Assembly (NCBI GenBank): GCA_023246225.1
Contig: JAHFIV010000001.1
Span: 46-64,045, forward strand
Reading direction: 5' to 3'
Length of the DNA: 64,000 bases
Origin: a bacterium
GTDB taxonomy: Bacteria; Patescibacteriota; Patescibacteriia; SG8-24
The notes beneath the pieces were generated by a model that searched no databases, was not told the origin of the DNA, and saw only the letters and a list, made by a program, of their open reading frames with translations. Position numbers and translations under genes: made by a program. Shown piece after piece: positions 7,126-63,915 of the stretch (within the stretch, counting starts at the first letter, position 1; each line of letters starts with the position of its first letter).

Positions 7126-7815
7126 CTAACCGTCACATGCGCATCCTGGAGGTTGATGACAAGTGTAGCTTCGACTGATACAGGAATTACCGCATGCTTT
7201 TCCTTTCGAGCATGTTTTGCAACAATAATTCTTTGGTGCTGGTCTAGGTGATGTTGAGGTTGTGGTAGGAACCGTGATTTTTTCCGCCACGTCCGGTAAT
7301 ACATTTATTCCGGGCAATTCCTGATTGAGTCGATAATTTCTTGAGGGAAACAGCAATGATGAAAGCCCATCATCACCTAGACCACCGAACCGATCAACTA
7401 CTCCTATGCATGGCCGCGAGTTAGTGATGTCCTCGTATAGATCTTCGGAAATCCGATATTCTCCAGTTTCCGAAACCGGGAAGTGTGTGTAACGTGTCTT
7501 TTCATAAGTGTAGAGATTCCCTTTCAAAGTCGAATAGCGCCTAAAAATAAGCGTGTTGCAATAATCAAACAGTCCGTTCGCACCCTGTGGATTCAACTGT
7601 TGAGTGTACCCTGAGCCATTCTCAACCTCTTTCAGTTGGCAATCTTTAAAAATAGATGGTAGCTCAGCCCATTCAAGCGGCAGTACACATTGCCGAACTG
7701 CAACTACTGGTGTCGTTGACGGTTGTAGTGAAGCGACTTCTTGACATCCGGCACCGATTAATATCAATGAAGTAACGATTAGGACAAACGTAGAATTAAT
7801 TTTTACATGCAGCAT
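7126..7815 (-). CDS. lipoprotein with Cys-rich C-terminal tail
   Basis: Signal peptide plus lipobox LIGAGC. The C-terminus NYCCKTCSKGKACGNSCISRSYTCHQPPGCACDG has 10 Cys in 34 aa. Confidence 0.6.
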   Translation of the reverse strand: MLHVKINSTFVLIVTSLILIGAGCQEVASLQPSTTPVVAVRQCVLPLEWAELPSIFKDCQLKEVENGSGYTQQLNPQGANGLFDYCNTLIFRRYSTLKGNLYTYEKTRYTHFPVSETGEYRISEDLYEDITNSRPCIGVVDRFGGLGDDGLSSLLFPSRNYRLNQELPGINVLPDVAEKITVPTTTSTSPRPAPKNYCCKTCSKGKACGNSCISRSYTCHQPPGCACDG

Positions 7816-7915
7816 AGTCAGCTTCTAGCCAATAAAATTTGCGCGTTCGTTAACGAGGAAACGCGAGTGACCACTGTTCCCTTACCATTTTACACCCGTG
7901 TCCCGTGTGGATGGG

Positions 7916-8530
7916 TTAATGTTGCCCGCTGATAACCAACAAATTTTCACTAAAAATAAATAACTCATGCTTCGCACTCTCAATTATTTCGTCTGCACGG
8001 CTTGAATCTTTTTTATTCCTCATATCAAGCATCTTCTCGTGCAACGCAACCATCTTTGGCAACAGATCATCATAATACTGTTTCTGATATTTTTCACCAA
8101 AATATTCCTTGAGAAATAACGGGTTTAATAAGTTTGTTTCATTCCACTGAGAAACAGATGTCATGTACTCCCTCCAAGTTTGATCTAGAGTAGACCTGGT
8201 CTCTCCAGCAACAAAATTTAGATAATATTTTTCTGAAAAATACACTCTACGTTGACCGACTACCGTGAAAGCATTAATAAAATTATACCTATTTTTGGTC
8301 AAGGTACTCAGATTCGTATAACGTTGCTGAATTTCTTGTTGTTTACTTTCAACGTAATAATTACCGATAAAAAGAGTAATCGAAAGCAAAATTAAACTCG
8401 AAAAAAAATTGTATAAATTTTCTTTGGTTGGCAAATTCTTACTATTTCGATTAATCCACTCAGAAAGATTTAATGATTTTCTAATTCGACCATTAATCAT
8501 GAGTGTCCTAATAAAAATTAGGAATCTCAC
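7916..8530 (-). CDS. hypothetical membrane-anchored protein
   Basis: An N-terminal hydrophobic segment. Overlaps the upstream gene by 4 nt (coupled). Confidence 0.45.
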   Translation of the reverse strand: MRFLIFIRTLMINGRIRKSLNLSEWINRNSKNLPTKENLYNFFSSLILLSITLFIGNYYVESKQQEIQQRYTNLSTLTKNRYNFINAFTVVGQRRVYFSEKYYLNFVAGETRSTLDQTWREYMTSVSQWNETNLLNPLFLKEYFGEKYQKQYYDDLLPKMVALHEKMLDMRNKKDSSRADEIIESAKHELFIFSENLLVISGQH

Positions 8531-26967: not shown

Positions 26968-27250
26968 TTTGTCATTCCAGCTTCCTTCTATTGTCATTCC
27001 GGACCCCTCTTCTTGTCATTCCGGCCTCCGAGCCGGAATCCATGCGAACAAAATAACCAAACAAATTTTGTTTGATCTTTTTTTACGTTCTGGATTCCGG
27101 GTCACGGCCCGGAATGACAAAAAAGAAGGGTCGGAATGACAAAAGAATGATGGCGGAATCCAGAATAAAAAAAGGCCAAACGAAAATTGTTTGGCTTTAC
27201 GGTTCTGGGTCCTGAATCCCCCGGACCTGATCCGGGGTCAGGATGACAAT
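26968..27250. repeat. MITE-like palindromic repeat cluster R1 (TGTCATTCCGG family)
   Basis: Three 22-nt tandem units starting TGTCATTCC, then hairpin modules (CCGGCCTCCGAGCCGG; CCAAAC-N-GTTTGG with a T-run; TTCTGGATTCCGGGTCACGGCCCGGAATGACAA). Shared with loci R2-R5. Confidence 0.8.
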
Positions 27251-33888: not shown

Positions 33889-35126
33889 TACGATTCCAGA
33901 TGCGGCGATCGCTTCGTCTGCGGCGGTATCGTATGGGGTTGCTGATGGGACGATTTTTTTTCTGGATTCCGGCTCGGGGGCAGGAATGACAGAAGATAGA
34001 GGGGTAGGGGTGATTGAAGAAGTGGATGGCGGAATGACAACGGTTTTGGTCCTGGTGCGGGGGCAGGAATAACAGATGGAGGTGTTACGGGTTTTGGTGG
34101 TGGTACGGCTTTTTTTTCTGGATTCCGGCTCGGAGGCCGGAATGACATGTTCCGGGTCAAGCCTGGAATGACAAGAGAAGTGGTAGCCGGAATGACAGAA
34201 GTGACAGACGGAACGACAGGAGCAGGAGAGGCTGGGATGACAGAAGAAAGAGCAGGCAGAGTGACAGGAGATGGGGGCGTTGCTGGTTGCGGTGGTTTTG
34301 GTGGTGGTACAACCACTGGTTTTTTCACTTCTTCTTTTACGATTCTGGATTCCGGCTCGGAGGCCGGAATGACAATAGACGAAGGGGTTGGCGAGGCTGC
34401 GAGGCTTACTTTTCGCCCAAATCGGCCGGCGAGTTCCTTGGTTTTCTGCAGGAACCTCTCTTTTGTTTGGCGCTCTCGCTCTTCTCGCTCCTTTGCATTT
34501 TTTATCGCTTCCTCTTTGAGCGCAGGTAACTTTGGAGCGGCTTCGTGCAGTAACGCGATAACCGCAGCGCTCTGTTCGGGAGAAAATTCAGACCCCCCGG
34601 TTTTCACCGGCTTCTCAAGCATCTCCTTCGTTGCATTTTCATCATGAATACCTTTCAACTGTGCGGTCACGATCGTCTCAAACCGACGACGCAGCACGTG
34701 ATCACTCGGCGCGTATCCGCTTTTCTCCACAATCCCCCGTGCCATCACCTCGATCGGATCGACCGCGGGAGGTAGCGGCGGAAGAAATTCATCAGCGTGC
34801 AGATCTTTGTAAATCTTTTGCTGCTCTTCAAGAAGCTCTGTAGCATCAGCGAGCACATCAGCGAACGCATCACCTTGCACATCGAGCGCTTTTTCAAAAG
34901 GTATCCCTGCGTTGTCCTCAAGCCAGCTCGCAAGATCATCATCAGAAATTTTTCCGAGCGCAATCATGCGCACACCGCTCAAAAATTCGTTTGTCTGTAC
35001 GGGAGTGAGCTCGTGTCGCACCGCGATCTCGTCAAATTTTTTCTGTCGCTCAGACGCAGCGAAAAAGGTCTCCAGCTCCGGGAGTACCCACTCGTCCTCC
35101 TTGAACGTGAAGACCGGTTCGGTCAT
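33888..35126 (-). CDS. hypothetical acidic protein whose C-terminal ~140 aa are encoded by palindromic repeat cluster R2
   Basis: Continuous ORF. Residues after about 245 read VIPASEPES / SFRPPSRNPEKK, the translation of GTCATTCCGGCCTCCGAGCCGGAATCC-type repeats. Confidence 0.5.
   Translation of the reverse strand: MTEPVFTFKEDEWVLPELETFFAASERQKKFDEIAVRHELTPVQTNEFLSGVRMIALGKISDDDLASWLEDNAGIPFEKALDVQGDAFADVLADATELLEEQQKIYKDLHADEFLPPLPPAVDPIEVMARGIVEKSGYAPSDHVLRRRFETIVTAQLKGIHDENATKEMLEKPVKTGGSEFSPEQSAAVIALLHEAAPKLPALKEEAIKNAKEREERERQTKERFLQKTKELAGRFGRKVSLAASPTPSSIVIPASEPESRIVKEEVKKPVVVPPPKPPQPATPPSPVTLPALSSVIPASPAPVVPSVTSVIPATTSLVIPGLTRNMSFRPPSRNPEKKAVPPPKPVTPPSVIPAPAPGPKPLSFRHPLLQSPLPLYLLSFLPPSRNPEKKSSHQQPHTIPPQTKRSPHLES
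33958..34376. repeat. MITE-like palindromic repeat cluster R2, located inside a reading frame
   Basis: At least four TTCTGGATTCCGGCTCGGAGGCCGGAATGACA-type units within the 33888..35126 ORF. Confidence 0.8.
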
Positions 35127-37787: not shown

Positions 37788-37868
37788 TGCAATGGGGGGA
37801 CGACTATACGCTTATAGTAGCACAAATCTCGACGGGGATGAATATGCTGTCTTCTCGGCCCTCTCCTC

Positions 37869-38087
37869 TGTCATTCCGGCCTCCGAGCCGGAATCCAGAA
37901 AAATTAAAAAGACCAAACGGAAATCGTTTGGCTTTACGGTTCTGGATTCCGGGTCACGGCCCGGAATGACAATAAAGGAGGCCGGAATGAAAGAGGGGTG
38001 GCTGGGTTCCACTCAACAAAAAGACCAAACGATTTCCGTTTGGTCTTTTTTACGTTTCTGGATTCCGGGTCAAGCCCGGAATGACAA
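37869..38087. repeat. MITE-like palindromic repeat cluster R3 (two adjacent elements) between the giant gene and the VirB6-like gene
   Basis: Starts TGTCATTCCGGCC and ends CCCGGAATGACAA. Contains two AAAAAGACCAAACG-N5-CGTTTGG-T-run bidirectional terminator-like hairpins. Confidence 0.8.
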
Positions 38088-38099
38088 AGCGAGAAAAAC

Positions 38100-41000
38100 C
38101 TATGGCAGTGGGGGGTACACCTCGATCGTTCCTGCGAAACTTGTCCAGGGGTTAGTCTTGTCGGGCGGAATCTGCACGCATTCATCCGCAGCACCGGTGT
38201 TGTTCATGCAAAGATTACCGAGGCCTCCGTTTCCAGGACATGTTCCGTTACACGTCTGCCAGTTATCCATAATCTGCACGCGTGGTTTAAACACACAGGC
38301 GGTGTGTGCATTGTTCACGCAATCGGTAACGATACCTTTGCTCTTGTCGCACTCCTGTTTATCAGCGATGAGTTTGGCAAGTTTTTCCTTACTGCACGTA
38401 TACGTATGCGTCTCCTCAAAAAACTCGCTCTGGCACTGTTTTCCACCACCCCATCCGAGCGCAGGATCATCACAAATCTTCTTACTGCTCCCCCCACCAA
38501 GGTTGATGCTGCCACGGCGGTTCTTGTACCAACCGGTCAACTCAAGAATTTCCAAATTATCACCCCAATCAACGATCTTATGCCGAATTGGCATGTGATC
38601 TCTATCGGCATACGCGTAGTACGTGAGCGTTGCTTTTAACTTACCGCTGTGCGACGCAACCGGCACCGCAGCCATAATTTTATTCACCGTGAGACCCGCT
38701 GGTCCTTCCTGACAATTCCTACTCCCGAAACAGAAACTGTAATCAACGGCAACTACCTTCGGTGCGTTGTGTTCCGTCGCATATCTCTCACGGAAATCCC
38801 AACCGCCGTCACCACCAAGCGCGCGCGCCGTCACGTCAACTTTTGCCAGATCGCCGTTTGCCAAACGGTACGCATCGTAGGACCAACGCGGCTCGTAATC
38901 GGCGCCGCGAGGAACAGTGACGGAAGGATCGGAGGGATTATTCCATAAAGGAGACCCTTGTCGCCACTCATACACATTAAACGCAGCGGCAAAGTACTGA
39001 CTGAGGTGCAACGCGCCGAGTGCGCGCGCGCCGAAACCTGCATTCCTCCACCCTGCATCTGGCGCACCCTTCCCTTTATCGCTGCCGCAATCACCGATGC
39101 ACGCGTATGGCGTCCCTGAAGCTGTAGATCCCGCGTTGAATATGAACTGCCTCTCATTCGGCTTATCTTTTTTCGGTCGAACGTCCACATGCGTGAACAC
39201 ACTGCCTCCCTCCGAGTCGTACACCGGCAAAATTCGGTTCCACACCTTGTTGATCTTCTCATCATCAGGAGCAGCAGGATTGAGACTAAACAAAATGCGA
39301 CCATTCTTTGGATCTGGTGAAAAATCTTCGATCGGTTGGGCGATCGCGCCGTAGGGAATCATTGGAAGCTGGGTCACTCCCACTGCGTTGTGTTGTTGTA
39401 TGTCCGTACCTGCGTTAGAGAATCGATCAGACTTATGATCTTTTTGATACGGCGGCGCGTCAAGATACGCATTCGCGAGCCGATCGGTCCATGCATAATT
39501 TTTAAAATCACTATCGAGCCCACGCGAAACATCGTTCACAAACGCGATCTCTTGGCACCAATCGCGAAGTTCGACATACACCGTTGCGAGGGTATTGGGG
39601 CAATAATCCTTGCTCCCGATAGCCTCTATGGCCTTGAGGAGAGCAGCGCCGATACAAGCCGTGGGATTAAAAAATGGATTAGGAGCAAGAGGAGTGGGCG
39701 GGGTACAGACGCCACCTACGAACGCCTCTGAAAGCTGGGCGCAATGTACTTCATTATTACAACTCACCGTCGCAAACCCTGCGAGCTTACGGTCAACAAA
39801 GTGCGCCCTAATACCGAGCACTGCAAGGTTCATGCAACCACCATCTGCCAACGGCTCGTCGATATCTGTTGTATGAGAATCATTCACCCCCAGCCCCGCA
39901 AATGGACAACTCGTTGAGGCAATAATTTCATGGTTACCTTTGATACTCTCGTCAAAATATTGACCGTTGTCTGGCCCTGGTTCACCTGAAGATTTATTTG
40001 GATAACGGATACAAATGGTCCACTGATTCTTTTCCGTAAGATAGAAATCGAATTTTCTTCCTGAGGCAACCGTACTCTTAAAGTATCCGGCATTTCCAAA
40101 AACATGGATACCGGCGATCTCATCCTCAAACAGATCTCTCTGCGGAAATTTATAAAGATTAGGCTTTGGAGGTGGCGTCGTGTGTACTGGGTACGGTATC
40201 CACTTCGCGTTTACCTTTCCATCATCCAAACCAAGAAGATCCCCAATACCAATTTTACACCCCACAGCTGCATAACATTCATTACTCCACCACCCCCAAC
40301 CGGGCAACCGAGGCACATCGGCCGGTATCGAACCGATCTGATCTTCAATTTTCATTGAATAACTAAGTATCCCAGGTGTACCAACGCGAGTACCTTGCGC
40401 AACCTGGCAATACAAAAGGTTGCCGGAGTTGACATACCCTGCCTCTTCGTTTTGGTTACCGAGGTCGCTCCCTCCGGAGAGCTGATCTTGAGGGAGCCAC
40501 AAGTTGCACGTATGCCGATCGGGGTTTGCGTTCACAAACCGACCAAAATCAGGATCGAGACAGAACCCGTACCAGCCCTTCGCTGTCACGTCTTTTGTCC
40601 AGCGCGAACACACGCCACCCTCGCTACTTACACATGGATCTGTTGCAGCATCCGTTGGCACTGGCCTTGCGCTCGGCACGCAAGTTTTCCCATCATTCGG
40701 TCCACCAACGCATACTCCTTTGTCCTCACCATGAATCCCCGGTGCAAGACGCGGATCGTGCAGCGAAACGTAGCGGACGGTAGTGCCGTTCACGCCATAC
40801 CCAAGCTTGCGATATGAACAATCACACGCATTTTCTTTGGTGCAGATGTTTGCGTTACCAAATCCCGACTTAATTTCCTTCGGAAGGCCGGTGTCATTAT
40901 CATACTTCACCACCACGCTCGGCGGGAAAGGCGCGTCATCTTCAGGATACCCTCGGCAAGAGGGTGCGTTAATGAAGTCGCTACGAAGCGGTCCGCCTTT

Positions 41001-44000
41001 CATGTCATACATGCACAGATTCGCGATGCATTTTCCTTGTGCCTGCGATCCTGCCGGACAATCGTACGTCCCACTGCACCCAAGACTGAGTTTACAATCC
41101 GCATCACTGCGACACTGCCGATTGTTGGTACTGAGCATCGCACCGACGCGCTGCGTTGCCGAGATCGACGCGTTGCAAATACCATCCGAACCGCACTGCG
41201 CGCTCGTATCACACGGCTTGAGTTGTGCGCTGTCGAGCGACGACTCACAGAATCCCACGAATTTTTTTCCACAGCGGAACCCCCACGAGAGCGGATCGCT
41301 CCCTGGCGGGTTGCACGTGCCGTCCGACCAGCACAGTGTATCGTTGAGCGTCCCTGTTTTCTTGTCCGCACATCGTCCCATGCGGAAATCGACCGGAAGC
41401 GCATACTGCGCCGGATACTGGCCGGGAATAGTAAACCCTGAATACTCCACTCCCTTGTAAGTGATGTCGCGCTGCGCATACAGATCCGCGGTGACGCGTT
41501 TTACATTCTCTACTTTTTCAGGACGCTCCACCCAATTACTGCATTCCTGCGACTCACCGAACGTGCGCTGTTCATCGCATGCATCAAATCCGGAACACCT
41601 ATACTTGTATCGTCCGGTTGCCTCATCAGAAACCGCGTCCGTGGATCTACACGTGAGCCACTCTGCACATTCGCGATCCGCACCCACTTTAATAACGATG
41701 TTCGCGTCATTTTTTGTGACGTCGCGCCCCGCGGGACTCACACCCTTCTCTGACAGATCACATTTTTCTTCTTTTCTCTTGTCACAATCGGTGTCCGCCC
41801 CGCATGCAGTCGTGTGCCCACCGTCCACGGAGAAGCACCGACCTTCACAGAACGGACTTCGCGGATCGAGATTGCAGTTGAGCGGGTTCACCTTGCCACC
41901 GTTCACTGTTTTTTCGCTAAGGAAATACGTCGCAGCAGACGCGAACAACCTTGAGGGGTCGCTAGTTTTAGTAAACAACACACACCCTTCTTTGAGCGAA
42001 GCGGAGCCCCCGCACGACGTGAGGTCCAACTTGTTGTTCATGATGTAGTAGTACGGCTTTCCTTTTGGATGCACCTTCGATGTCGCGGCGGGATCAATAA
42101 ATTCTTCGCAACGATCGTACTGCGGATCGCACTGCCCCACCCAACCTTGATACCCACACGTGGTATTGCCGCGCGCAACTCTGCATACTTGCGTCGTGAT
42201 CGGCGGATTCGTGCATCCGCACGTGGACGTCGACGCGTCCCATCCGATCGTGGTCGGTCCGCACGTCAAACCGTCCGGCAGCTGGCAGAGCGCGTCGGCA
42301 TTTTTATACAAATTGTAGAATTCACCGTTCTGCAACAACTCTGGATAGCACGGAATATCTTTTCCTGCAGCGCTCGCCCGGAACCAACCGTAGCTCGCAG
42401 TGCCGCTAATGTTTACTCCTTCTTTATATTGGCACGTGCGATCGAACGGCTCTTTGAAATAATACTTTCCGTCGATCGCAGTGAACTCTTCGCAAGAAAT
42501 CGCCGGTTGCGTACACAAAGTTTGCCCGTACTGCGCGGGATCATCTTTGAGCGCTTTGACGTTCCAATTTCCTGGCACGCCGTTTTCAAACGAGAGCGTG
42601 CAGGTGCTCAGTCCTTTTGCGACCGTACAGTTTGCGTTAAATATCGGTCCGCATGTGCATCCCGACGCATCGTCGCACTTGCCCGCAACGATCCCCGCTC
42701 CGACGTTCGGGAGCGTGCACTCGCGTTCGTAAGTGATCTGCGGATTCGCGACGCTCTTGCAACCGATCGCTGTCGCCGCGCAAAGATTCTCACTGCGCGC
42801 AACGAGGAACCGACGATCGTCCGCAGAAACGTTTACGCGATCAGGATGCGAAGATTGCGGAGTGTTGTCGTCCCATCCATCGAGTTTGAACTGGCATGCG
42901 TTCTCTCCGATCGCGACGCGGCAGATATCCGCGATATCCGGAACGTTATCGGTGTACCAAGGATGGCGCACGTTGTAGTCGCACTTACAGTTCGACGCTT
43001 CATCTGCGACAACCGCGCAATCTTTCGCGCCTTTCGCGACAATACAAGAATTGATGCCATCGTTACATGCGCACGACGCTCCCAAACATGTGGCACCTCC
43101 CGCGAGCGTGCATTTTCCACATGTACGCGGCTCCGGCGTTGCTCGTTTATCAACGAGCTGACACACCGCGTTATACGATTCCTCGTACGGTGTCTGCACG
43201 TTGTTTTGTGTGAACGAGTACGCCTGACAACCGACCGCTTTGTCGCGACACAACTGTGCGAACGATCGCAGATATGCTTTTTTATTTGCACTGTTCGTGT
43301 ACTCCTTACACCCCAACATCTCTTGTGGCGACGGCACGCCAGCGAGCGTTTGGTCGCACGCTGCGGGCGTGTTCCACGAATCGCGAACGACGTACAAATT
43401 TTCTGGAACTTCTTTTACGATAACGTTATCGATGTACGCTTCGCCAACACCGGATTTGGCGAACACGAGGCTCGTCGGCGCAGTGCCCCACAGAGGATCG
43501 ACCGCGCTCACCGGACCGAGTGAATACTGTTTCCAGTCCGCTCCGAGCGTAAGCGTCGGCGCAGACGTTGTGGTGTCGGCATCACTAAAATGCAGACTGA
43601 GCGGCTTATCTGGCGCTGTCGTCCCTTTCTTTGCAACAACACAATCGGATTTCATTTTTTCGACAAGACACACGAGCCCTGTAGGCGAGACGCATCCGCA
43701 ACCCGCGTCCTGATCGCACACCGTTTTGTTTGTACACGTGACATCTTCTGCGCCATCTTCAAAGCCGATGTCGAGCGTGCCGCTTCCCCGCGCCCAGAAC
43801 GTGAGTGTATAGCTGCGACCCGCAGCGACCGTACCGCCAACTTCTTTTGTCGCGGTCACGGATCCTGGAGCGAACTTCAACGAGTGTCCGCCGACAATCA
43901 CGGATTCTGATGACTGCTTCACATCCTTGCTCATCCACGCATCGACACCAGCCTCAAACGTGTCGCGCACAATACTCCGCACGTTGCTCGACGCGTTTCC

Positions 44001-47000
44001 TTTATATGGTCGGCAACCGTTGTACGCCTTACCGCAGTTCTGACTCGCTGTGACGTCTGCGTTGTAAATACACTGGCCCTTATCAGCGATCCACTGACCG
44101 TTTGATTTTTTACAATCATTTTCAGTTGCGGTGGTGATGCGATACTGGTGACATTCCGCGGTGAGGACGATCGTCTTTGATAATTTGCGGAAGTGGCGGT
44201 TGCCGTCGGCGTCATAAAATTCTCGGCAATCCAGATCACCACTATCGATATCTGCGCGACTGCACAAACCGTCGGTGGAACCGGCAGGAAGATCAGTGCT
44301 CACACTCGCGCAGTTGAGAGCGTTATCATCAAGCCGCGTACACGGTGCAACACCGGCGTTCTTGCACGTAGCCGGATCTGCGCACTCATCTGCAGCCTTT
44401 CCTTCTCCGATCTCTGTCATACTACACGCGCCGCACACGCCTGCAGCGCAGCACGTCTCTTCGTGCGCGACCGTGGTGTCACCACCCGCCGCGTCAGTCA
44501 CCTTCTTAAAGTTCCATACTTTCAACTGATATCCTGCAGTGTCTGAACCTTCCCAGCTATAGAACACTGTTTTCGGATCGGTCGACGGCTTTTGACACAA
44601 ACGAAGTTTCGAAAAGTACGCGACTTTTTCGTTCTCAACGTTGGTGAATTCAGAACAACCCGACTCCGCTTGCGTACACTGCTTCGCGGTCGTCGGAATA
44701 AAATACACAGGGAATTTTTCTGTATCAAATTCCGTTGCTTCTTGCTTGAAAATGTCATATCCCGCGCACTGCGCCGGACACGCGTCTTGCGGACCGGTCA
44801 CTGCAGGAAGTGAAGGATCGCCGTTCGTTGGTGTGAACCGATCACACCCGACTTCTTGCTCGCGACACACGCCTGCGAACGATGCACACTCTGGGCGGTC
44901 GGTCTCGTCACCTGTGCAACCAAGAAACGCGGGAGGAATTTTCGCGTCCACCATAGTGTTTGCCGAACCATACCCCTCGTGGAACGGCGTCAAACTCCCC
45001 TGCTCGAACTGCACTTCATCAACGTAGTCACCACCGCCGATCTCAAGCAAACCGTGCACCACTTTCTTTGGCAGCTTCGTGTCATCAACAACGAGCGTGC
45101 ATGACGCGCGGACTTCATCTGCGTTGCTCGTAAACGCGAAACGTAATACACCCGGCGCGTCAACTTTGCAGAAGTCGCTCGTCGGTGTTACCGGATTGCC
45201 GTTCTTATCTTGATACGCAGTGTTCGAAATAATCGCACCTGCCGGAAGCACGATCACGTTTCCGTTCAGATCGGTGAACGTCATTTGCATCGTCCCACTC
45301 GCTGAAGAAGCGCCGCTAAGGAACGTCGCTGAGAGGGTGTATGTGGTGTTTCCTTTTACCGGGACGCTGTCCTGGATGACGCGATCGGTGTACGCACATT
45401 CGGTCTGTCCTTTTATAACCTTACAAGTGTAATCGCCATCTTTGCAGGTGCACCCGGCATCGTTTGTACATACCGCAATCGTACAAGATTTTGGCGCGGA
45501 CCCCGTGAGACCCTGTATCTTCATCGCACTCGAGCCGCTCTTTATATTTGCCGCGGTCGTGGTTAAGACACCGCTGCTTGCAGATGCAGGAACCGCACCG
45601 AATGGCGCCCAATATTTCGCATGGTCAGGCGTGCCGTCACCATCGCCGTCCTCCAACTCTTCAAATCCCCCGTTTCGCACGAGGTTCAAAGATTGTCCGG
45701 TCGCGAGCGGAACGAGCGCAGAGCATCCGTTGTCTGTCGCCGAACACGTTTGCGCATTCTTATTAAAGTATCGCTGCGGCTGCACACGCCAATCATCGGC
45801 GACGTTCTGATCATCTCCCATCGTTGATGCGCAAGAATCCTGCCCCTTTGCAACGCGACACGTGCTGAGGTAGCAGCTACACCCGCCAGCGCTCGCGCAT
45901 TTCGCTTCGAGCGTGCACACGCTGCCATCATCGACTTTGCAAAGCGTTTTTCCGTTCGCGACGACGCAGCCGTCATTCCCTGACGCGTTGCCGGCGAGAC
46001 AACCTTTTTCAAGCGGACAAGTGTCGACGCACACGCTCCCGGGACAATCTGCATCCTTCGTACACTGCGTGCCGGCGTTCGCGCCTGCTTTGCAGAAATT
46101 TTTCTTCTGCGCAGAGATGGCGTTGGTTTGCAGCGAATACGCAAGACAACCGACGTTGTCAGCGTTACACACATCGACATCGATCGTGTTGACCAAGAAA
46201 TTTTCTGTGCCGCCCGTGCGAGTTTTGAGCGTTCGACAACTACTATAGTAGGCAGGACACTGCTCACCCTGGAATCGCCACACATTCCGCTCTTTCTGAC
46301 AGTACCCCCATCCACCGACGCACTTCCCGAAATCGTCCTGACGTAAACACGTCGGCGAATCAACACACACCTCTGCACGCGAGGACGTTTCGCTTGTCAC
46401 AAGCGTCGGTCCAAACGCTGTCGCGCGGCATTGCGTTGGTGGAACTTTGAGAACCCAGTCAGGATCGATCAGATGACACCACGGATGAGCCGAGTCGATC
46501 GTGCCGTTCGCGTTGCAATCATTAAAATGCGCGACAACCTCGCCGAGTGTCACTGGCGTCGCACCGACTTTGCTCGCGGCGATCTCCCAGCCGATCGAAA
46601 TGATACGCGCGGCACGAAGCTGTTTGAGGTTGCTCTCACAGTACGCGTACGTGTAGCAAAACGGATCGGTGTCGCGCTGTTTCTCTGTGGCAGGGAACAT
46701 CCGCCAATCGCTATGAAGCATCCCTCGCTTCAGCGCTTCTCTCACAGAGAGCGGTGTCGCATCGCCGATGCGAACAATGTCAGCAAACTGCTGGTCCATG
46801 ACGCAGTTGTTCGGGGCAGGATTCGACGGCGGGCAGGTCGTAAAATTGGTAAGCGGATCGTACTCCCCCGCTTCGTGCGTGGTAAGTGGGACGATTCTTG
46901 ACTGCTGAATCACCGCGGAGGCTGTTGCGCCCGGTTGTTGCACGATCCCTTCTGGACTAAGAATGATGTCGGGTTGTACAGAAAGCAGTTCTCCTGTGGA

Positions 47001-47942
47001 GAGCAGACCGCTCACCAGTTTATTCCACAATCGTGCGGTAAGTGTCGAGACAAACGTATTTGTCGCAGTAAGAACGACGGACTTCACCGCTCCTTTTGCG
47101 ATACTACCGGTCGTCGCCATTCTCGTACCGTCGAGTTGAGAGGCTTCACCATTTTTTGAACGACGGAATTCTTCTTGCGTCACTGCGCCTGGAGATTTTA
47201 TGCGACCAGAAACAGGATCTTTAATCGGAGAGAATCCTCCGCTCGACGCATTGGCGAGTCTCTCAACAACGCTGTCTCGCTGCGCGTTGCTGATAATATC
47301 TTGCTTGATGCCGAGCGCGGCGATGGAGACGCTGAGCGGACTCTGTCCCAATGAAAATTGGGGTTTTAATTTATTCAAAATCTCTCCTGTTGAAAATGAG
47401 GTAGCTATCGAATCCCAATTTTTAATCAGCTGATCGAAATTACACTTTGGCGGACTAGGAACGATCTCTTTCATGAAGCTGAGCTGCAACGCCAGCCCCG
47501 AAAGTCCTGGATCGCAAAGAAAATTGTTGCCGAACAACCCTTGCGAAAGGGAACCGACACTTTCACCGATCGCCCCTTGCCATGCTTGTCGGAAACCGTC
47601 CTTAAATCCCTTACTGTCCCAACACGCCACCTGACCAGGACAATCAGAGGTCAACGCTTTTGCTGCTTGATACGCGAGTTGCTGCGTAAAATAATTTGTA
47701 CCGTTAACGACCGCGATCACCGCTGACTCAACCAAAAGATGTTCGATCTTGTCGCTAGCAGCATTACCTGCAACTAAAGAAGTTAGCGGCGCATCCGCAA
47801 CAGGAAGCACGGCGAGCGCCGGCTTCGGCACAGTGAGCGTCGTTATCGTCACAACGCCCGCAACAAACATCGCGAGAAGCGCGCTGAGTTTCAGCGTTCT
47901 CTTTGTTGTGTGCGATTTTTCCGATCGCGGTTGTGGTTTCAT
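38100..47942 (-). CDS. giant (3280 aa) secreted/anchored Cys-rich surface protein with CBM-like modules
   Basis: Uninterrupted 9.8-kb ORF with N-terminal signal/anchor. Repeated Cys module C-x-C-x(4-7)-C-x-VAKG-x(2-3)-C at least 6 times. NGGFE and RDTFEAG segments resemble CBM4/9-type starts. Its ATG overlaps the upstream stop. Confidence 0.85.
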   Translation of the reverse strand: MKPQPRSEKSHTTKRTLKLSALLAMFVAGVVTITTLTVPKPALAVLPVADAPLTSLVAGNAASDKIEHLLVESAVIAVVNGTNYFTQQLAYQAAKALTSDCPGQVACWDSKGFKDGFRQAWQGAIGESVGSLSQGLFGNNFLCDPGLSGLALQLSFMKEIVPSPPKCNFDQLIKNWDSIATSFSTGEILNKLKPQFSLGQSPLSVSIAALGIKQDIISNAQRDSVVERLANASSGGFSPIKDPVSGRIKSPGAVTQEEFRRSKNGEASQLDGTRMATTGSIAKGAVKSVVLTATNTFVSTLTARLWNKLVSGLLSTGELLSVQPDIILSPEGIVQQPGATASAVIQQSRIVPLTTHEAGEYDPLTNFTTCPPSNPAPNNCVMDQQFADIVRIGDATPLSVREALKRGMLHSDWRMFPATEKQRDTDPFCYTYAYCESNLKQLRAARIISIGWEIAASKVGATPVTLGEVVAHFNDCNANGTIDSAHPWCHLIDPDWVLKVPPTQCRATAFGPTLVTSETSSRAEVCVDSPTCLRQDDFGKCVGGWGYCQKERNVWRFQGEQCPAYYSSCRTLKTRTGGTENFLVNTIDVDVCNADNVGCLAYSLQTNAISAQKKNFCKAGANAGTQCTKDADCPGSVCVDTCPLEKGCLAGNASGNDGCVVANGKTLCKVDDGSVCTLEAKCASAGGCSCYLSTCRVAKGQDSCASTMGDDQNVADDWRVQPQRYFNKNAQTCSATDNGCSALVPLATGQSLNLVRNGGFEELEDGDGDGTPDHAKYWAPFGAVPASASSGVLTTTAANIKSGSSAMKIQGLTGSAPKSCTIAVCTNDAGCTCKDGDYTCKVIKGQTECAYTDRVIQDSVPVKGNTTYTLSATFLSGASSASGTMQMTFTDLNGNVIVLPAGAIISNTAYQDKNGNPVTPTSDFCKVDAPGVLRFAFTSNADEVRASCTLVVDDTKLPKKVVHGLLEIGGGDYVDEVQFEQGSLTPFHEGYGSANTMVDAKIPPAFLGCTGDETDRPECASFAGVCREQEVGCDRFTPTNGDPSLPAVTGPQDACPAQCAGYDIFKQEATEFDTEKFPVYFIPTTAKQCTQAESGCSEFTNVENEKVAYFSKLRLCQKPSTDPKTVFYSWEGSDTAGYQLKVWNFKKVTDAAGGDTTVAHEETCCAAGVCGACSMTEIGEGKAADECADPATCKNAGVAPCTRLDDNALNCASVSTDLPAGSTDGLCSRADIDSGDLDCREFYDADGNRHFRKLSKTIVLTAECHQYRITTATENDCKKSNGQWIADKGQCIYNADVTASQNCGKAYNGCRPYKGNASSNVRSIVRDTFEAGVDAWMSKDVKQSSESVIVGGHSLKFAPGSVTATKEVGGTVAAGRSYTLTFWARGSGTLDIGFEDGAEDVTCTNKTVCDQDAGCGCVSPTGLVCLVEKMKSDCVVAKKGTTAPDKPLSLHFSDADTTTSAPTLTLGADWKQYSLGPVSAVDPLWGTAPTSLVFAKSGVGEAYIDNVIVKEVPENLYVVRDSWNTPAACDQTLAGVPSPQEMLGCKEYTNSANKKAYLRSFAQLCRDKAVGCQAYSFTQNNVQTPYEESYNAVCQLVDKRATPEPRTCGKCTLAGGATCLGASCACNDGINSCIVAKGAKDCAVVADEASNCKCDYNVRHPWYTDNVPDIADICRVAIGENACQFKLDGWDDNTPQSSHPDRVNVSADDRRFLVARSENLCAATAIGCKSVANPQITYERECTLPNVGAGIVAGKCDDASGCTCGPIFNANCTVAKGLSTCTLSFENGVPGNWNVKALKDDPAQYGQTLCTQPAISCEEFTAIDGKYYFKEPFDRTCQYKEGVNISGTASYGWFRASAAGKDIPCYPELLQNGEFYNLYKNADALCQLPDGLTCGPTTIGWDASTSTCGCTNPPITTQVCRVARGNTTCGYQGWVGQCDPQYDRCEEFIDPAATSKVHPKGKPYYYIMNNKLDLTSCGGSASLKEGCVLFTKTSDPSRLFASAATYFLSEKTVNGGKVNPLNCNLDPRSPFCEGRCFSVDGGHTTACGADTDCDKRKEEKCDLSEKGVSPAGRDVTKNDANIVIKVGADRECAEWLTCRSTDAVSDEATGRYKYRCSGFDACDEQRTFGESQECSNWVERPEKVENVKRVTADLYAQRDITYKGVEYSGFTIPGQYPAQYALPVDFRMGRCADKKTGTLNDTLCWSDGTCNPPGSDPLSWGFRCGKKFVGFCESSLDSAQLKPCDTSAQCGSDGICNASISATQRVGAMLSTNNRQCRSDADCKLSLGCSGTYDCPAGSQAQGKCIANLCMYDMKGGPLRSDFINAPSCRGYPEDDAPFPPSVVVKYDNDTGLPKEIKSGFGNANICTKENACDCSYRKLGYGVNGTTVRYVSLHDPRLAPGIHGEDKGVCVGGPNDGKTCVPSARPVPTDAATDPCVSSEGGVCSRWTKDVTAKGWYGFCLDPDFGRFVNANPDRHTCNLWLPQDQLSGGSDLGNQNEEAGYVNSGNLLYCQVAQGTRVGTPGILSYSMKIEDQIGSIPADVPRLPGWGWWSNECYAAVGCKIGIGDLLGLDDGKVNAKWIPYPVHTTPPPKPNLYKFPQRDLFEDEIAGIHVFGNAGYFKSTVASGRKFDFYLTEKNQWTICIRYPNKSSGEPGPDNGQYFDESIKGNHEIIASTSCPFAGLGVNDSHTTDIDEPLADGGCMNLAVLGIRAHFVDRKLAGFATVSCNNEVHCAQLSEAFVGGVCTPPTPLAPNPFFNPTACIGAALLKAIEAIGSKDYCPNTLATVYVELRDWCQEIAFVNDVSRGLDSDFKNYAWTDRLANAYLDAPPYQKDHKSDRFSNAGTDIQQHNAVGVTQLPMIPYGAIAQPIEDFSPDPKNGRILFSLNPAAPDDEKINKVWNRILPVYDSEGGSVFTHVDVRPKKDKPNERQFIFNAGSTASGTPYACIGDCGSDKGKGAPDAGWRNAGFGARALGALHLSQYFAAAFNVYEWRQGSPLWNNPSDPSVTVPRGADYEPRWSYDAYRLANGDLAKVDVTARALGGDGGWDFRERYATEHNAPKVVAVDYSFCFGSRNCQEGPAGLTVNKIMAAVPVASHSGKLKATLTYYAYADRDHMPIRHKIVDWGDNLEILELTGWYKNRRGSINLGGGSSKKICDDPALGWGGGKQCQSEFFEETHTYTCSKEKLAKLIADKQECDKSKGIVTDCVNNAHTACVFKPRVQIMDNWQTCNGTCPGNGGLGNLCMNNTGAADECVQIPPDKTNPWTSFAGTIEVYPPLP

Positions 47943-52329: not shown

Positions 52330-53437
52330 TTATCCCTTCTTCCCGGCATTCTGTCGCAGATATGCTTCGACAAATTGATCGAGGTCGCCATCGAGAACTT
52401 CCTGGGTGTTCTGCGTTTCGTACTTTGTGCGATGATCTTTCACCATCTGGTACGGATGGATCACGTACGAACGAATCTGATTCCCCCACTCCGCGCTCGT
52501 GAATTCGCCGCGCAGTTTCTTTTTTTCTTCTGCGCGTTCTTCGAGATACACCTTGTGCAACTTCGCACGCAAAATGCGCATCGCGGTTTCTTTATTCTGT
52601 GTTTGTGAACGCTCGTTCTGACAGGTAACGACGATGCCGGTCACGAGGTGTGTGATGCGCACCGCAGAATACGTCGTCTGTACACCTTGGCCACCGTGAC
52701 CGCCAGCGAGATATGTATCGATGCGCAAATCCTGCGGAAGAATTTTTACTTCTTCGATGTCACCGAGTTCGGGGAGAACTTCGAGTAGCGCGAACGATGT
52801 TTGGCGAAGTTGATCTGCATTGAACGGCGAGAGACGCACGAGTCGATGCACGCCCGCTTCGGCTTTGAGAAAACCGTATGCGTAACGACCTTCAACAGAA
52901 AACGTTGCGCTTTTGATCCCCGCTTCATTTCCTCGCGACTCGTCGAGCAGTTTCACCTTCCAACCTTTGCGCTCAGCATAACGAAAATACATACGCATCA
53001 GCATCTCCGCCCAATCCTGTGCATCGGTTCCTCCCGCGCCGGCGTGAATCGCAAGGATCGCGTCGTTCTCATCGAACTTATCGCCCATCAGCGTCGCAAA
53101 TTCGAGCTTTGCAAACTTCTGCAGCAACTCCTCCAATTGTTTTTTTGCATCGGCTTCCGCGGTCGTGTCATTTTCATCTTCCGCAAGACGCGCAAAATCT
53201 AAAAGTTCATCGGTGTCTGCGCGCAACTGATCCCACTCACTGTAATATGATTTGATATCTGCGAGTCGACGGCTCACGCGCTGCGCATGTTCCTGATTTT
53301 TCCAAAAATCTGGCTGCTGCGTTTCCCACTCGGTTGCGTCGATGTCCGCCTTGGTTTTTGCGAGGTCAAAGTAACCCCCAAGTATCGGAGATCCGGCCGC
53401 GGAGATTCTCGATATCCTGGAGGTGTGGCTTTATCAT
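52330..53437 (-). CDS. prfB: peptide chain release factor 2, requires programmed +1 frameshift
   Basis: SPF and GGQ motifs. Frame 0 (ATG at 53437) ends ...GLL-TGA at 53366. The +1 frame continues FDLAKTKADI... to 52330. Confidence 0.85.
53366..53381 (-). promoter_or_regulatory. RF2 autoregulatory +1 frameshift site
   Basis: Minus strand reads TGGGGGTTACTTTGACC: SD-like GGGGG, then TTA CTT TGA C. Confidence 0.85.
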
Positions 53438-53775
53438 AACGTTATCTTTTGTGCGTACTTGCCGACGAGCGGAAGTTCCCACTTCACGCCCTGGAGTGTG
53501 CGCACGACGGCGATGATTGAAACGATGAACATTGTGAAACTCAGGACTGCACCGACCCATGCGTGAAGAAATCCGAAACTGAGTATGACATCGATTGCGA
53601 ACAGCACGATCCCTTGCCGAACGTGATACTTACAAAACTCACTATCCTTCCTGACGAGCATCGGGATGAGAAAAAGAATGCCGAGATACGCGAGCGCGGC
53701 GAGAATGCGCTCTTCGGTATCCTTTTTTGGCGCTGGCGGTGTCGATTGATGAAGAGTCTCTTCCATATATGCCAT
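53434..53775 (-). CDS. small DUF4870-like membrane protein
   Basis: AALAYLGILFLIPMLVRKDSEFCKYHVRQGIVLF motif with 2-3 TM segments. Start trimmed to ATG 53775, because the upstream extension runs into repeat R4. Stop overlaps the prfB ATG (ATGA). Confidence 0.55.
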   Translation of the reverse strand: MAYMEETLHQSTPPAPKKDTEERILAALAYLGILFLIPMLVRKDSEFCKYHVRQGIVLFAIDVILSFGFLHAWVGAVLSFTMFIVSIIAVVRTLQGVKWELPLVGKYAQKITL

Positions 53776-53814
53776 GCTACAGCGGTACGCCGTTTCTTTC
53801 AACGGACCACCCAT

Positions 53815-53960
53815 TGTCATTCCGGCCCGCCTTTTTGTCATTCCAGCCTCCTCTTCTTGTCATTCCGGGCCGTGACCCGGAATCCAGAACCGTAAAGCCA
53901 AACGATTTCCGTTTGGCCTTTTTATTTTTCTGGATTCCGGCTCGGAGGCCGGAATGACAA
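53815..53960. repeat. MITE-like palindromic repeat cluster R4
   Basis: Three 22-nt TGTCATTCC units, then CGGGCCGTGACCCGGAATCCAGAA, a CCAAACG-N5-CGTTTGG hairpin, and TTCTGGATTCCGGCTCGGAGGCCGGAATGACAA. Confidence 0.8.
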
Positions 53961-53965
53961 AATAA

Positions 53966-53996
53966 TGAAAAAGAGGCCCGTGCAGGGCCTCAAAAA
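53966..53996 (-). terminator. intrinsic terminator after the small-paralog/groEL transcription unit
   Basis: GAGGCCC-GTGCA-GGGCCTC stem followed by a T-run on the minus strand. Confidence 0.55.
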
Positions 53997-53997
53997 T

Positions 53998-54345
53998 TCA
54001 ATCGTCAGGGCCGCAATTGCCCATGTGTCGTCCGAGCATCACCATCGCGTTGTGATCTCTTGTGGCTTGCTCGCGCGTGGCGATCAGCACCTCGCGCATC
54101 TCAGCGATAATCAACCTCATCATCGCCGGTCTCGGACGCGAAACGCCGAGCGCATAACGTGCAAATGACGTTCCTCCGACCTCGGTCTTTTCCACGAGCA
54201 TGCTCATGAAACGCTCGCCACGACCGAGCAGCATCGCCTGCATGAGTGCGGATCGCACCAACTCATCGAATGGTGGGCTCGCGCCGTCCCAATCTTTCAT
54301 GTGAACGATCAGCATGTTGAAGTTGCACTCCACGTTTCTTTCCAT
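53998..54345 (-). CDS. small putative HTH protein, paralog C of a tandem trio
   Basis: Shares the N-terminal KDWDGASPPFDELVRSAL motif and an ALGVS HTH-like segment with 54364..54657. Confidence 0.5.
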   Translation of the reverse strand: MERNVECNFNMLIVHMKDWDGASPPFDELVRSALMQAMLLGRGERFMSMLVEKTEVGGTSFARYALGVSRPRPAMMRLIIAEMREVLIATREQATRDHNAMVMLGRHMGNCGPDD

Positions 54346-54363
54346 GGTGGACTCCTCGACTCG

Positions 54364-54657
54364 CTACGTTGTCTTGTTGCTCGACGCTTCTTCGCGCAGA
54401 GCGATAAGCGTCCTACGCACTGTGGCACCGATCCATTGCAGCAGCAACGGATGCGGCTCCGTTTGCTGATGCGCCCAACGGACGATGGTTGGCGACGAAA
54501 CTCCTAAGGCTTCCGCCAAATCGCGAACGAACGAAGCGTCGTTACGAACCAATCTCAAGGCTGAACTGATCACCTCGTGCAAGGGAGGGGTCTTTCCATC
54601 CCAGTGTTCGAGCGACGCGATGAGCGTATCGAGGGGGGTCTCTTCTTCTTTCTTCAT
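54364..54657 (-). CDS. small putative HTH protein, paralog B
   Basis: LEHWDGKTPPLHEVISSAL plus HTH-like DLAEALGVSSPTIVRWA. Confidence 0.5.
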   Translation of the reverse strand: MKKEEETPLDTLIASLEHWDGKTPPLHEVISSALRLVRNDASFVRDLAEALGVSSPTIVRWAHQQTEPHPLLLQWIGATVRRTLIALREEASSNKTT

Positions 54658-54669
54658 TGTGTTCTCCTC

Positions 54670-55032
54670 CTATTCCTCGAAACCGTCGGGTCCGGGGAGA
54701 TCTCGCTTCATCTCGTCGATCAAAGCCTGAAGCCGCTTTTCGACCTCGGCCCTGCATTCGATGACTCGAGCACGGACTGATTCCACAATTTTCGGCTGTG
54801 ATTCCTTGAACCAGCTGTCACCCCGCGCGCATCCGATGATGGTATGTTTCTCGTTCTTGGTATCCTGCGCCACGCCGGTGAGAAAACGGTTCGTCTCCTC
54901 CATCGTCGCTGCGAGAAAAAGACCGGAAGCAACGCACTCAGAGAAGGATGGCTTCTTACCGTTCCAATTCTTGATCGACGAAAGAAAAGTCGTCTCGTCG
55001 GTCTCGATTCTGATTTTGCTCGACTTCTTCAT
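54670..55032 (-). CDS. small protein, paralog A
   Basis: IKNWNGKKPSFSECVASGL N-terminal motif. Start taken at MKKSSKI (ATG 55032); the ORF is open to 55053. Confidence 0.45.
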   Translation of the reverse strand: MKKSSKIRIETDETTFLSSIKNWNGKKPSFSECVASGLFLAATMEETNRFLTGVAQDTKNEKHTIIGCARGDSWFKESQPKIVESVRARVIECRAEVEKRLQALIDEMKRDLPGPDGFEE

Positions 55033-55131
55033 GAAAAGACCTCCTTCACTCATGCTAGGCTAGCATTTCTCGCACATAAGTCAATACAGAAAACGCCCCA
55101 CAGTATTGCGAGGCGTTTTCGTTACTCTTCC

Positions 55132-56784
<1,653 letters not shown>

Positions 56785-56798
56785 TCAAGTGAGGTTCA

Positions 56799-57089
56799 TT
56801 AGGCAAGGACAGCGAGAATGTCGCCTTCCTCCAATATCAATAATGTCTGCCCGTCGATTTTAAATTCATCTGGTGCGTATTTCTTAAACATCACCTTGTC
56901 GCCCGGCTTCACGGTCATCGGTGCGCGCTGTCCGTTCTCAAGCAGCTTACCTGGTCCGGTTGCAACGACCTCCCCCTTCTCCGGTTTTTCTTTCTCTACA
57001 GTGTCAGGAATGATGATCCCCGATTTTGTTGCCTGCTCCTCAGAAAGCGCCTTCACAAGAACGCGGTCGGATAACGGATTCACCTGCAT
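56799..57089 (-). CDS. groS: co-chaperonin GroES
   Basis: A 96-aa Hsp10 with a mobile-loop region. Confidence 0.95.
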   Translation of the reverse strand: MQVNPLSDRVLVKALSEEQATKSGIIIPDTVEKEKPEKGEVVATGPGKLLENGQRAPMTVKPGDKVMFKKYAPDEFKIDGQTLLILEEGDILAVLA

Positions 57090-57111: not shown

Positions 57112-57138
57112 TTAGCACTCATGAACATAGAGTGCTAG
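57112..57138 (-). promoter_or_regulatory. CIRCE operator (HrcA binding site) upstream of groES
   Basis: TTAGCACTC-ATGAACATA-GAGTGCTAG, a perfect 9-N9-9 inverted repeat, 23 nt upstream of the groES start. Confidence 0.85.
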
Positions 57139-63621: not shown

Positions 63622-63710
63622 AGCAAGCGTACGGAGTGATACCCTTTAATCTGCACATGGTAAAAGAGCGGCGCGAAAAAGGCAAGTTATTACATTTCGA
63701 ACAACCACTT

Positions 63711-63915
63711 TGTCATTCCGGCCCCATCTCTGTCATTCCTCTCTTCTGTTGTCATTCCGGGCCGTAACCCGGTCCTTTTCCTTGTCATTCCGGGCCGTGA
63801 CCCGGAATCCACGTAACAAAGTAACCAAACAGTTTTTGTTTGGTCTTTTTTTACGTTCTGGATTCCGGCTCGGGGGCCGGAATGACATGTTCCGGCTCGG
63901 AGGCCGGAATGACAA
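63711..63915. repeat. MITE-like palindromic repeat cluster R5
   Basis: Four tandem TGTCATTCC units, CGGGCCGTGACCCGGAATCC, a CCAAACAG-N-TGTTTGG hairpin with a T-run, and a TTCTGGATTCCGGCTCGGGGGCCGGAATGACA terminal palindrome. Confidence 0.8.

Follow-up and report, generated by a model that had tools for sequence, protein, structure and literature searches.

Within the 64-kb stretch of DNA that was analysed (the window), three consecutive small open reading frames lie on the minus strand between the chaperonin genes and the gene for release factor RF2. ORF1 (54670–55032, minus strand) is the most diverged paralog. ORF2 (54364–54657, minus strand; 97 residues), preceded by the SD site GGAGG, carries the clearest helix-turn-helix (HTH) of the trio, at residues 41–62, and ORF3 (53998–54345, minus strand; 115 residues; SD site GAGGAG) belongs to type A, the subtype commonest among relatives. 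The spacers are 12 nt between ORF1 and ORF2 and 18 nt between ORF2 and ORF3. An alternative start at 55053 would give ORF1 a product of 127 residues; the start is likely the ATG at 55032, which yields 120 residues, because the SD site GGAGG at 55040–55044 sits 7 nt upstream of this ATG, relatives are called with 120 residues and L006, the closest relative outside the near-identical strains, lacks the upstream ATG.

On the same strand, 78–99 nt upstream of ORF1, ends groEL (55132–56778, minus strand; 548 residues), whose orthologs carry PF00118 and whose product is 87–89% identical to GroEL of L010 and L009. It is preceded by groES (56799–57089, minus strand; 96 residues), the L002/L009 ortholog of which carries PF00166 (Cpn10). 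Upstream of groES is the sole CIRCE inverted repeat in the window, CTAGCACTC-N9-GAGTGCTAA (57112–57138), with 1 mismatch to the consensus and 0 such sites expected by chance. On the other side of the trio, a cluster of REP/MITE-like dispersed repeats (TTGTCATTCCGGNC; 53814–53962) is arranged as nested inverted copies around a second hairpin at 53894–53920. The conserved downstream neighbour is a gene for a DUF4870/MamF_MmsF-like membrane protein (53434–53841, minus strand), which has its own promoter-like element and whose stop codon overlaps the start of prfB (ATGA). The prfB gene (52330–53436, minus strand) encodes RF2 and contains the canonical +1 frameshift site CTT TGA C near 53362–53368.

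In the preliminary description of this DNA, no terminator was seen between groEL and the trio, and the three genes were taken to be co-transcribed with the HrcA/CIRCE-controlled groESL operon; neither point holds. An intrinsic-terminator-like hairpin (55083–55120, minus strand) begins 12 nt past the groEL stop, with a 14-bp stem (55107–55120 paired with 55089–55102), the 4-nt loop ATAC, a folding energy of −22.1 kcal/mol and the U-rich tail UGUAUU; it escaped a simple terminator scan and was detected by folding. A hairpin with a U-run also follows groEL in the eight relatives whose groEL–family spacer was folded. At L006–L010, L012 and L015 a GC-rich hairpin and T-run are succeeded by a TTGACx-type box, the stem sequences differing from one another while the structure is kept.

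Located 3' of the hairpin is a promoter-like element (55057–55084, minus strand), called by eye and below the threshold of the promoter scan, which consists of a −35 box TTGACT (55079–55084), a 16-nt spacer and a −10 box TAGCCT (55057–55062); L006 has TTGACA-16-TAACCT in the matching place. Overlapping the −10 box is a perfect 15-bp palindrome, ATGCTAG-G-CTAGCAT (ATGCTAGGCTAGCAT; 55052–55066), which occurs once in the window, where about 1.2 such patterns with up to 3 mismatches are expected by chance. In the L006 promoter the inverted repeat is shorter (CTAA-CC-TTAG), its changes being paired between the two arms; past this closest relative the palindrome shows no clear conservation, and no operator shared across the promoters of the divergent relatives could be defined by eye. 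The palindrome is a candidate autoregulatory operator.

The unit closes, as had been described, with an intrinsic terminator after ORF3 (53964–53991, minus strand; GAGGCCC-TGCAC-GGGCCTC and a T-run, stem at 53973–53991), and the last family gene has a terminator behind it at every locus checked, including L007–L010 and L013–L015. Since a terminator and a promoter precede the trio, a terminator ends it and CIRCE is found only before groES, the trio is most likely an insulated three-gene operon, separate from the groESL heat-shock transcript, with some read-through from groEL being possible.

The three products are paralogous, as originally proposed: nearly full-length BLASTP alignments give E 2e-17 and 32% identity for ORF2/ORF3, E 1e-8 for ORF1/ORF3 and E 5e-8 for ORF1/ORF2. 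They have in common an N-terminal block, W-[DN]-G-x-x-P-x-[FL]-x-E, which reads WNGKKPSFSE in ORF1, WDGKTPPLHE in ORF2 and WDGASPPFDE in ORF3. The block was first written as W(D/N)G(K/A)xPP(F/L)xE; it is real in all three proteins, but ORF1 reads ‘PS’, not ‘PP’. An ALGVS segment had also been put forward as the common HTH core of two of the ORFs, and this equivalence dissolves on alignment. ORF2 LAEALGVSSPTIVRW aligns with ORF3 LVEKTEVGGTSFARY, ORF3 YALGVSRPRP aligns with ORF2 WAHQQTEPHP, and the supposed common core is 19 residues out of register. All three proteins are slightly acidic (pI 6.0–6.6), and a search of the window with the family HMM brings up no paralogs beyond these three.

The family profile, run exhaustively with HMMER against 1.84 billion representatives, collects 36 clusters at E≤1e-3. 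The small proteins of the family are about 85–165 residues long, mostly 95–150, and 32 align well with the trio of the window; four clusters (P0006, P0013, P0016 and P0031) are long multi-stretch proteins. ORF1 matches the family HMM at E 4.6e-33, P0007 being a representative relative. A word-indexed homolog search with ORF2 alone as query returned near-identical relatives only, and the profile search reached further. The full family alignment is devoid of any conserved stretch of 7–10 columns. Two additional ORFs, of 168 residues at L014 and 114 residues at L016, look like very divergent members by eye, are negative with the family HMM and are left unassigned.

At curated thresholds, no member of the trio matches Pfam, NCBIfam, PHROGs or PADLOC. 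ORF2 reaches 14.5 bits against HTH_3, for which the cut-off is 23, its sub-threshold HTH matches falling at residues 44–65, and ORF1 and ORF3 give no HTH match in the Pfam and NCBIfam scans. Across the family, HTH_3 is matched at E≤0.1 by 7 of 35 members (best E 1.8e-5) and Phage_CI_repr by one, and the family profile retrieves P0013 and P0031, which are tandem HTH_3 repeat proteins. Against the PDB, profile positions 43–84 match the XRE-type protein 3bs3_A at E 3.1e-4. In hhalign, the family was compared with an XRE alignment of 434 Cro and cI, P22 c2, SinR and the HTH_3 repeat units of P0013 and P0031; the match has a probability of 92.4% and E 5.2e-7 over 39 columns, in a test that is not fully independent because the P0013/P0031 units were retrieved by the family profile itself. 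The matched columns span helix 2, the turn, helix 3, ‘GxxxP’ and helix 4. The early suggestion of an HTH-containing, putative DNA-binding family is upheld by these profiles, and the match to a known superfamily lowers its novelty.

Structure prediction, which had been named as a check, gave confident AF2 models for ORF3 (pLDDT 92.5) and ORF2 (pLDDT 92.2) with one shared five-helix topology, in which the WDG loop lies between a short first helix and three further helices and a long C-terminal helix closes the chain. In ORF3 the helices comprise residues 9–17, 26–39, 43–54, 58–66 and 73–109. In Foldseek searches with the two models the highest-ranking matches are nearly all XRE regulators, with weak E-values of 0.4–5, among them ClgR, a mycobacterial XRE protein, DdrO, 3bs3, C.Kpn2I, P22 c2 and SinR. 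The conserved residues lie in the core and turns (W19, G21, P24, F26, W/Y64, A65, G67 and P71), with W19, F26 and P71 each at least 90% conserved family-wide. The ‘RWAxGxSxP’ turn of the XRE-like core is kept throughout the family, the recognition-helix positions are variable, and the long C-terminal helix often ends in an acidic tail. Of the three HTH segments, that of ORF1 departs most from the canonical pattern. We conclude that helices 2–4 and the start of helix 5 probably form a diverged XRE/Cro-C1-type HTH core, and that the N-terminal helix with the W-D-G-x-x-P-x-F loop and the C-terminal helix of about 35 residues are family-specific additions.

The trio consists of real genes and not of spurious ORFs, because relatives carry them, ORF1 is under selection, the family comprises many homologous clusters and the AF2 models are confident. 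The same genes are present in the near-identical strains L001–L005 and in L006, at 86% DNA identity. Between the window and L006, ORF1 differs at 61 positions, of which 39 are third codon positions, and has a dN/dS of 0.17; for ORF2 the value is about 0.47, from few substitutions. The GC content of the trio is that of its surroundings.

Family members occupy one chromosomal slot in 11 independent loci, after groES–groEL or before DUF4870–prfB and usually both, in the order Wzy_C – groES – groEL – [family] – DUF4870 – prfB – epimerase – Sua5, which contig ends truncate in most of the 11. The gene-order comparison with relatives that had been called for therefore finds the adjacency to groEL conserved: groEL precedes the family at every locus with upstream flank, and the DUF4870 gene follows it except at L016 and L017, where the contigs end or diverge downstream. 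At L016 a divergent member comes after groEL with a 195-residue gene in between, and DUF4870–prfB is not seen in the 2-kb contig. The groEL–family spacer is about 250 nt at L006 and L008, where repeats are inserted, and about 400 nt at L018. GroEL is 87–89% identical across the family-bearing genomes, and family members are only 20–45% identical. Adjacency to groEL is nevertheless weak evidence of a functional link, because the relatives are close and the whole neighbourhood is syntenic.

A triplication had initially been described, and it does not extend to a conserved trio, since copy number ranges from 1 to 3 per locus and subtypes differ between genomes. A single type-A copy is present at L010, L012, L015 and L018, types B and C at L009, types A, B and C at L007, L008 and L013, and at least types A and B at L017; the window combines two subtypes of its own with type A (ORF3). 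At L008, L010, L012, L015 and L017 a gene for a two-TM protein of 65–70 residues lies just ahead of the type-A gene, whose start it overlaps; this small gene is absent from the window locus. A locus search with the type-A alignment returned 3 loci in genomes and 1 in metagenomes, and in this type-A subset search no viral relative was found among 2.9 million viral contigs. The one placed relative, L012, is the MAG nzgw371, classified as Patescibacteria; ABY1; SG8-24 (PMC12455944). Two family-bearing TPA MAG records are titled ‘uncultured Gammaproteobacteria’, at odds with the Patescibacteria classification of L012.

With some reserve, we consider it probable that the trio is an autonomous operon of autoregulated, dimeric XRE-type DNA-binding regulators and constitutes an accessory locus outside the CIRCE/HrcA transcript. 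A unit made up of promoter, ORF1, ORF2, ORF3 and terminator would have been inserted, with groESL on one side and the DUF4870–prfB operon on the other, in a groundwater-type Patescibacteria genome related to class ABY1, order SG8-24. In its products, the WDG loop and the N-terminal helix are predicted to pack onto the HTH core and, to judge from the fold, the proteins would pair into homo- or heterodimers through the long C-terminal helix and in this state bind DNA operators, the mode of binding of ClgR-, SinR- and C-protein-type XRE regulators. Repression would act at least on the promoter of the trio itself, via the palindrome over the −10 box, and the variable recognition helices may confer different operator specificities on the paralogs. 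The array as a whole would then be a fast-evolving, copy-number-variable accessory regulatory locus.

The HTH fold need not mean that all, or indeed any, of the paralogs bind DNA, and one or more could be protein-binding antagonists or partners; such a reading is unlikely, while deserving some weight. The slightly acidic pI and the acidic C-terminal tails agree with it, as do the poorly canonical HTH of ORF1 and the long C-terminal helix, through which tandem paralogs could heterodimerise. In five loci the two-TM protein is, moreover, translationally coupled to the type-A gene. On these grounds the partnership could be a SinI/SinR-like pairing with an anti-repressor, or the proteins could be cytoplasmic partners of the small membrane proteins of the relatives, options to which we likewise give a minor share of credence. 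Against this stand the conservation of the XRE-like core, including its ‘RWAxGxSxP’ turn, and the window itself, in which no partner is identifiable and the TM gene is absent.

Membership of the trio in the groES–groEL transcript as its distal genes, with HrcA/CIRCE heat-shock control and a role as stress-coupled regulators, is rather improbable. It would suit the position of the genes on the same strand so shortly downstream of groEL, the presence of groEL beside the family wherever the flank of a relative is long enough, even at the divergent L016, and the fact that terminators are rarely 100% efficient. A strong hairpin and U-run nevertheless separate the genes both here and in eight relatives, with a stem sequence that differs between them; a −35/−10 element lies 3' of the hairpin; and CIRCE stands before groES only. 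Spacers of about 250 nt (L006, L008) and 400 nt (L018) are unlike an operon junction, and with relatives so close that the order from Wzy_C to Sua5 is wholly kept, adjacency alone says little.

Starting from the autonomous operon, one may ask whether its regulators act on their neighbours. It is doubtful that the array adds, on top of HrcA/CIRCE, a second layer of control over proteostasis or envelope stress that is specific to Patescibacteria. In such a scheme the XRE-like paralogs would tune the promoters of the flanking groESL and/or DUF4870–prfB operons, which seems a long shot, and stress would be sensed via the WDG module, the long helix or the relatives’ small membrane proteins, for which we hold equally slim expectations. 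Were this so, function and not mere inheritance would explain why the family stays linked to groEL even where its members are down to 20% identical. The trio might help to control the chaperonin or RF2, but this is unsupported.

It is very unlikely that a mobile element, such as a prophage immunity, toxin–antitoxin or defence module, left the array behind as a remnant or carries it as cargo. XRE repressors, often in tandem, are typical of such elements, and the variable copy number and content, the flanking REP/MITE-like repeats and the weak PHROG and PADLOC HTH matches of ORF2 are in keeping with an origin of this kind. The chromosomal position is constant in 11 loci, however, no integrase, toxin or phage gene lies nearby, the GC content is that of the surroundings, the type-A search found no relative in the 2.9 million viral contigs, and the PADLOC and PHROG matches are to generic HTHs only, at E>0.003. 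The idea that the ORFs are spurious and non-coding, prompted by their having no annotated family or name in any source, has next to no probability and is ruled out by SD sites on all three, the dN/dS of 0.17 for ORF1, the 36 homologous clusters and a pLDDT of 92.

In Patescibacteria (CPR), whose genomes are tiny, few transcription factors can be recognised and most small proteins lack annotation. A lineage-specific family from this group now has a name and a predicted fold, an XRE-type HTH with a WDG N-terminal extension, and is described as a variable, probably independently transcribed array in a fixed chromosomal slot, with a concrete candidate promoter and operator. The analysis also corrects the appealing assumption of co-transcription with a heat-shock operon, and the interest of the locus is modest because this, its striking element, fails. 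Regulation of groESL or prfB by the trio, if it occurred, would make the locus a matter of real interest in CPR physiology; as matters stand, the lineage is poorly charted but the kind of protein is ordinary.

Among known systems, HrcA/CIRCE heat-shock control is represented next door, in the CIRCE element of the groESL operon; the trio itself is without CIRCE, is shielded by a terminator and shows no similarity to HrcA. An anti-sigma-like family, raised in the preliminary description, was rejected: no sigma gene is adjacent, the neighbours examined being Wzy_C, groES, groEL, DUF4870, prfB and the epimerase gene, and the trio contains neither a zinc (Cys/His) motif nor a TM segment, the AF2 models being those of soluble, all-helical proteins. 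XRE-type antitoxins (HigA/MqsA/Xre-RES) were likewise set aside, with no toxin family among the neighbours and only a generic HTH in PADLOC, at E 0.0036.

SinR/SinI and SlrR/SlrA of Bacillus each pair an XRE repressor with an adjacent, paralogous helical antagonist. The resemblance lies in adjacent paralogs with a common helical multimerisation segment, and SinR is among the fold matches; all three trio proteins, in contrast, keep a full HTH-like core, and the sequence kinship is at the level of the XRE superfamily only. ClgR is an actinobacterial XRE regulator of clp, lon and chaperone genes and is a precedent for a link between XRE proteins and protein quality control. Together with the mycobacterial XRE protein 5woq, ClgR (PDB 3f51/3f52) is the best Foldseek match of both models, with a probability of up to 0.82 yet an E-value of only 0.4–0.8 and 16–32% identity, and it too combines a small XRE HTH with a C-terminal helix behind it. 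It belongs to another phylum, is without the N-terminal WDG element and is not among the matches of the family profile to the PDB at E≤10. ClgR is thus the nearest structural analogue, and membership of the ClgR family is not supported.

The broadest comparison is with XRE/Cro-C1 proteins (HTH_3 clan; 3bs3, P22 c2, 434 Cro), with which the core of helix 2, turn, helix 3, ‘W-x-x-G-x-x-x-P’ and helix 4 aligns by profile. The trio differs in scoring below the curated Pfam thresholds, in the conserved N-terminal helix and W-D-G-x-x-P-x-F loop added ahead of the core, in a last helix of about 35 residues and in the restriction of its family to one Patescibacteria clade and one locus. On its profile matches, the trio family is best described as a lineage-restricted, unmodelled branch of the well-known XRE HTH superfamily.

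Among the three tandem HTH paralogs (ORF1, ORF2 and ORF3) that lie on the minus strand between groEL and DUF4870-prfB (53998–55053), ORF2 is the most variable between strains, sharing 86–87% amino-acid identity compared with 98–100% for ORF1 and ORF3. In strains with 97–99% identity to the window, an insertion of ~135 nt separates ORF1 from ORF2 (1066–1210 in the near-identical strain L001 versus 54658–54669 in the window). It gives ORF2 an extended N-terminus, rich in lysine and arginine, and a length of 142 aa. Relative to L006, a related locus with 86% DNA identity, the dS of ORF2 is 0.14, far below that of ORF1 (0.62), and this difference between neighbouring paralogs suggests recombination inside the array.

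In five related loci, the first gene past the groEL terminator and promoter encodes a two-TM protein of 65–70 aa (L008, 1575–1787; L010, 7798–7996; L012, ~7796–7996; L015, 608–805; L017, 655–867), and in each the type A HTH gene (the subtype to which ORF3 belongs) follows with its start overlapping the stop of the two-TM gene. The window lacks an equivalent of the two-TM gene. A second small TM ORF is located between the type A and type B genes in L008 and L013. The TPA MAG records of L010 and L011, which contain this locus, bear the title ‘uncultured Gammaproteobacteria bacterium’, whilst the syntenic MAG nzgw371 (L012) has been assigned to Patescibacteria; ABY1; SG8-24. The Gammaproteobacteria titles therefore appear to be incorrect.

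Next to family members in L014 and L016 lie ORFs of 168 aa (105–611) and 114 aa (1548–1892), respectively, which by eye resemble very divergent members without the WDG motif. A search with the family HMM that covered L014 did not detect the 168 aa ORF at E≤1. Elsewhere in the window, a giant minus-strand ORF of 3280 aa (38100–47942) has a syntenic counterpart of 3133 aa in L007, with a faint CBM_4_9 match.

A REP/MITE-like dispersed repeat with the core TTGTCATTCCGGNC is present in 25 copies, against 2.3 expected (≤2 mismatches), arranged as inverted groups clustered at five sites in the window (~26969–27142, ~33979–34375, ~37868–38087, 53814–53962 and ~63710–63915). At 53814–53962, repeat copies flank a bidirectional terminator hairpin on both sides; they also overlap the DUF4870 ORF (53434–53841, minus strand) at its annotated 5' end. 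Unlike in the window, the REP/MITE-like element in L006 (~760–900) is placed between groEL and ORF1.

At its other end, the DUF4870 stop overlaps the ATG of ORF0 of prfB (ATGA), implying that DUF4870 and RF2 are translationally coupled. Within 53355–53440 (minus strand), ORF0 comprises 25 codons and precedes the programmed +1 frameshift site of prfB, which is of the canonical form (GGG TTA CTT TGA C).
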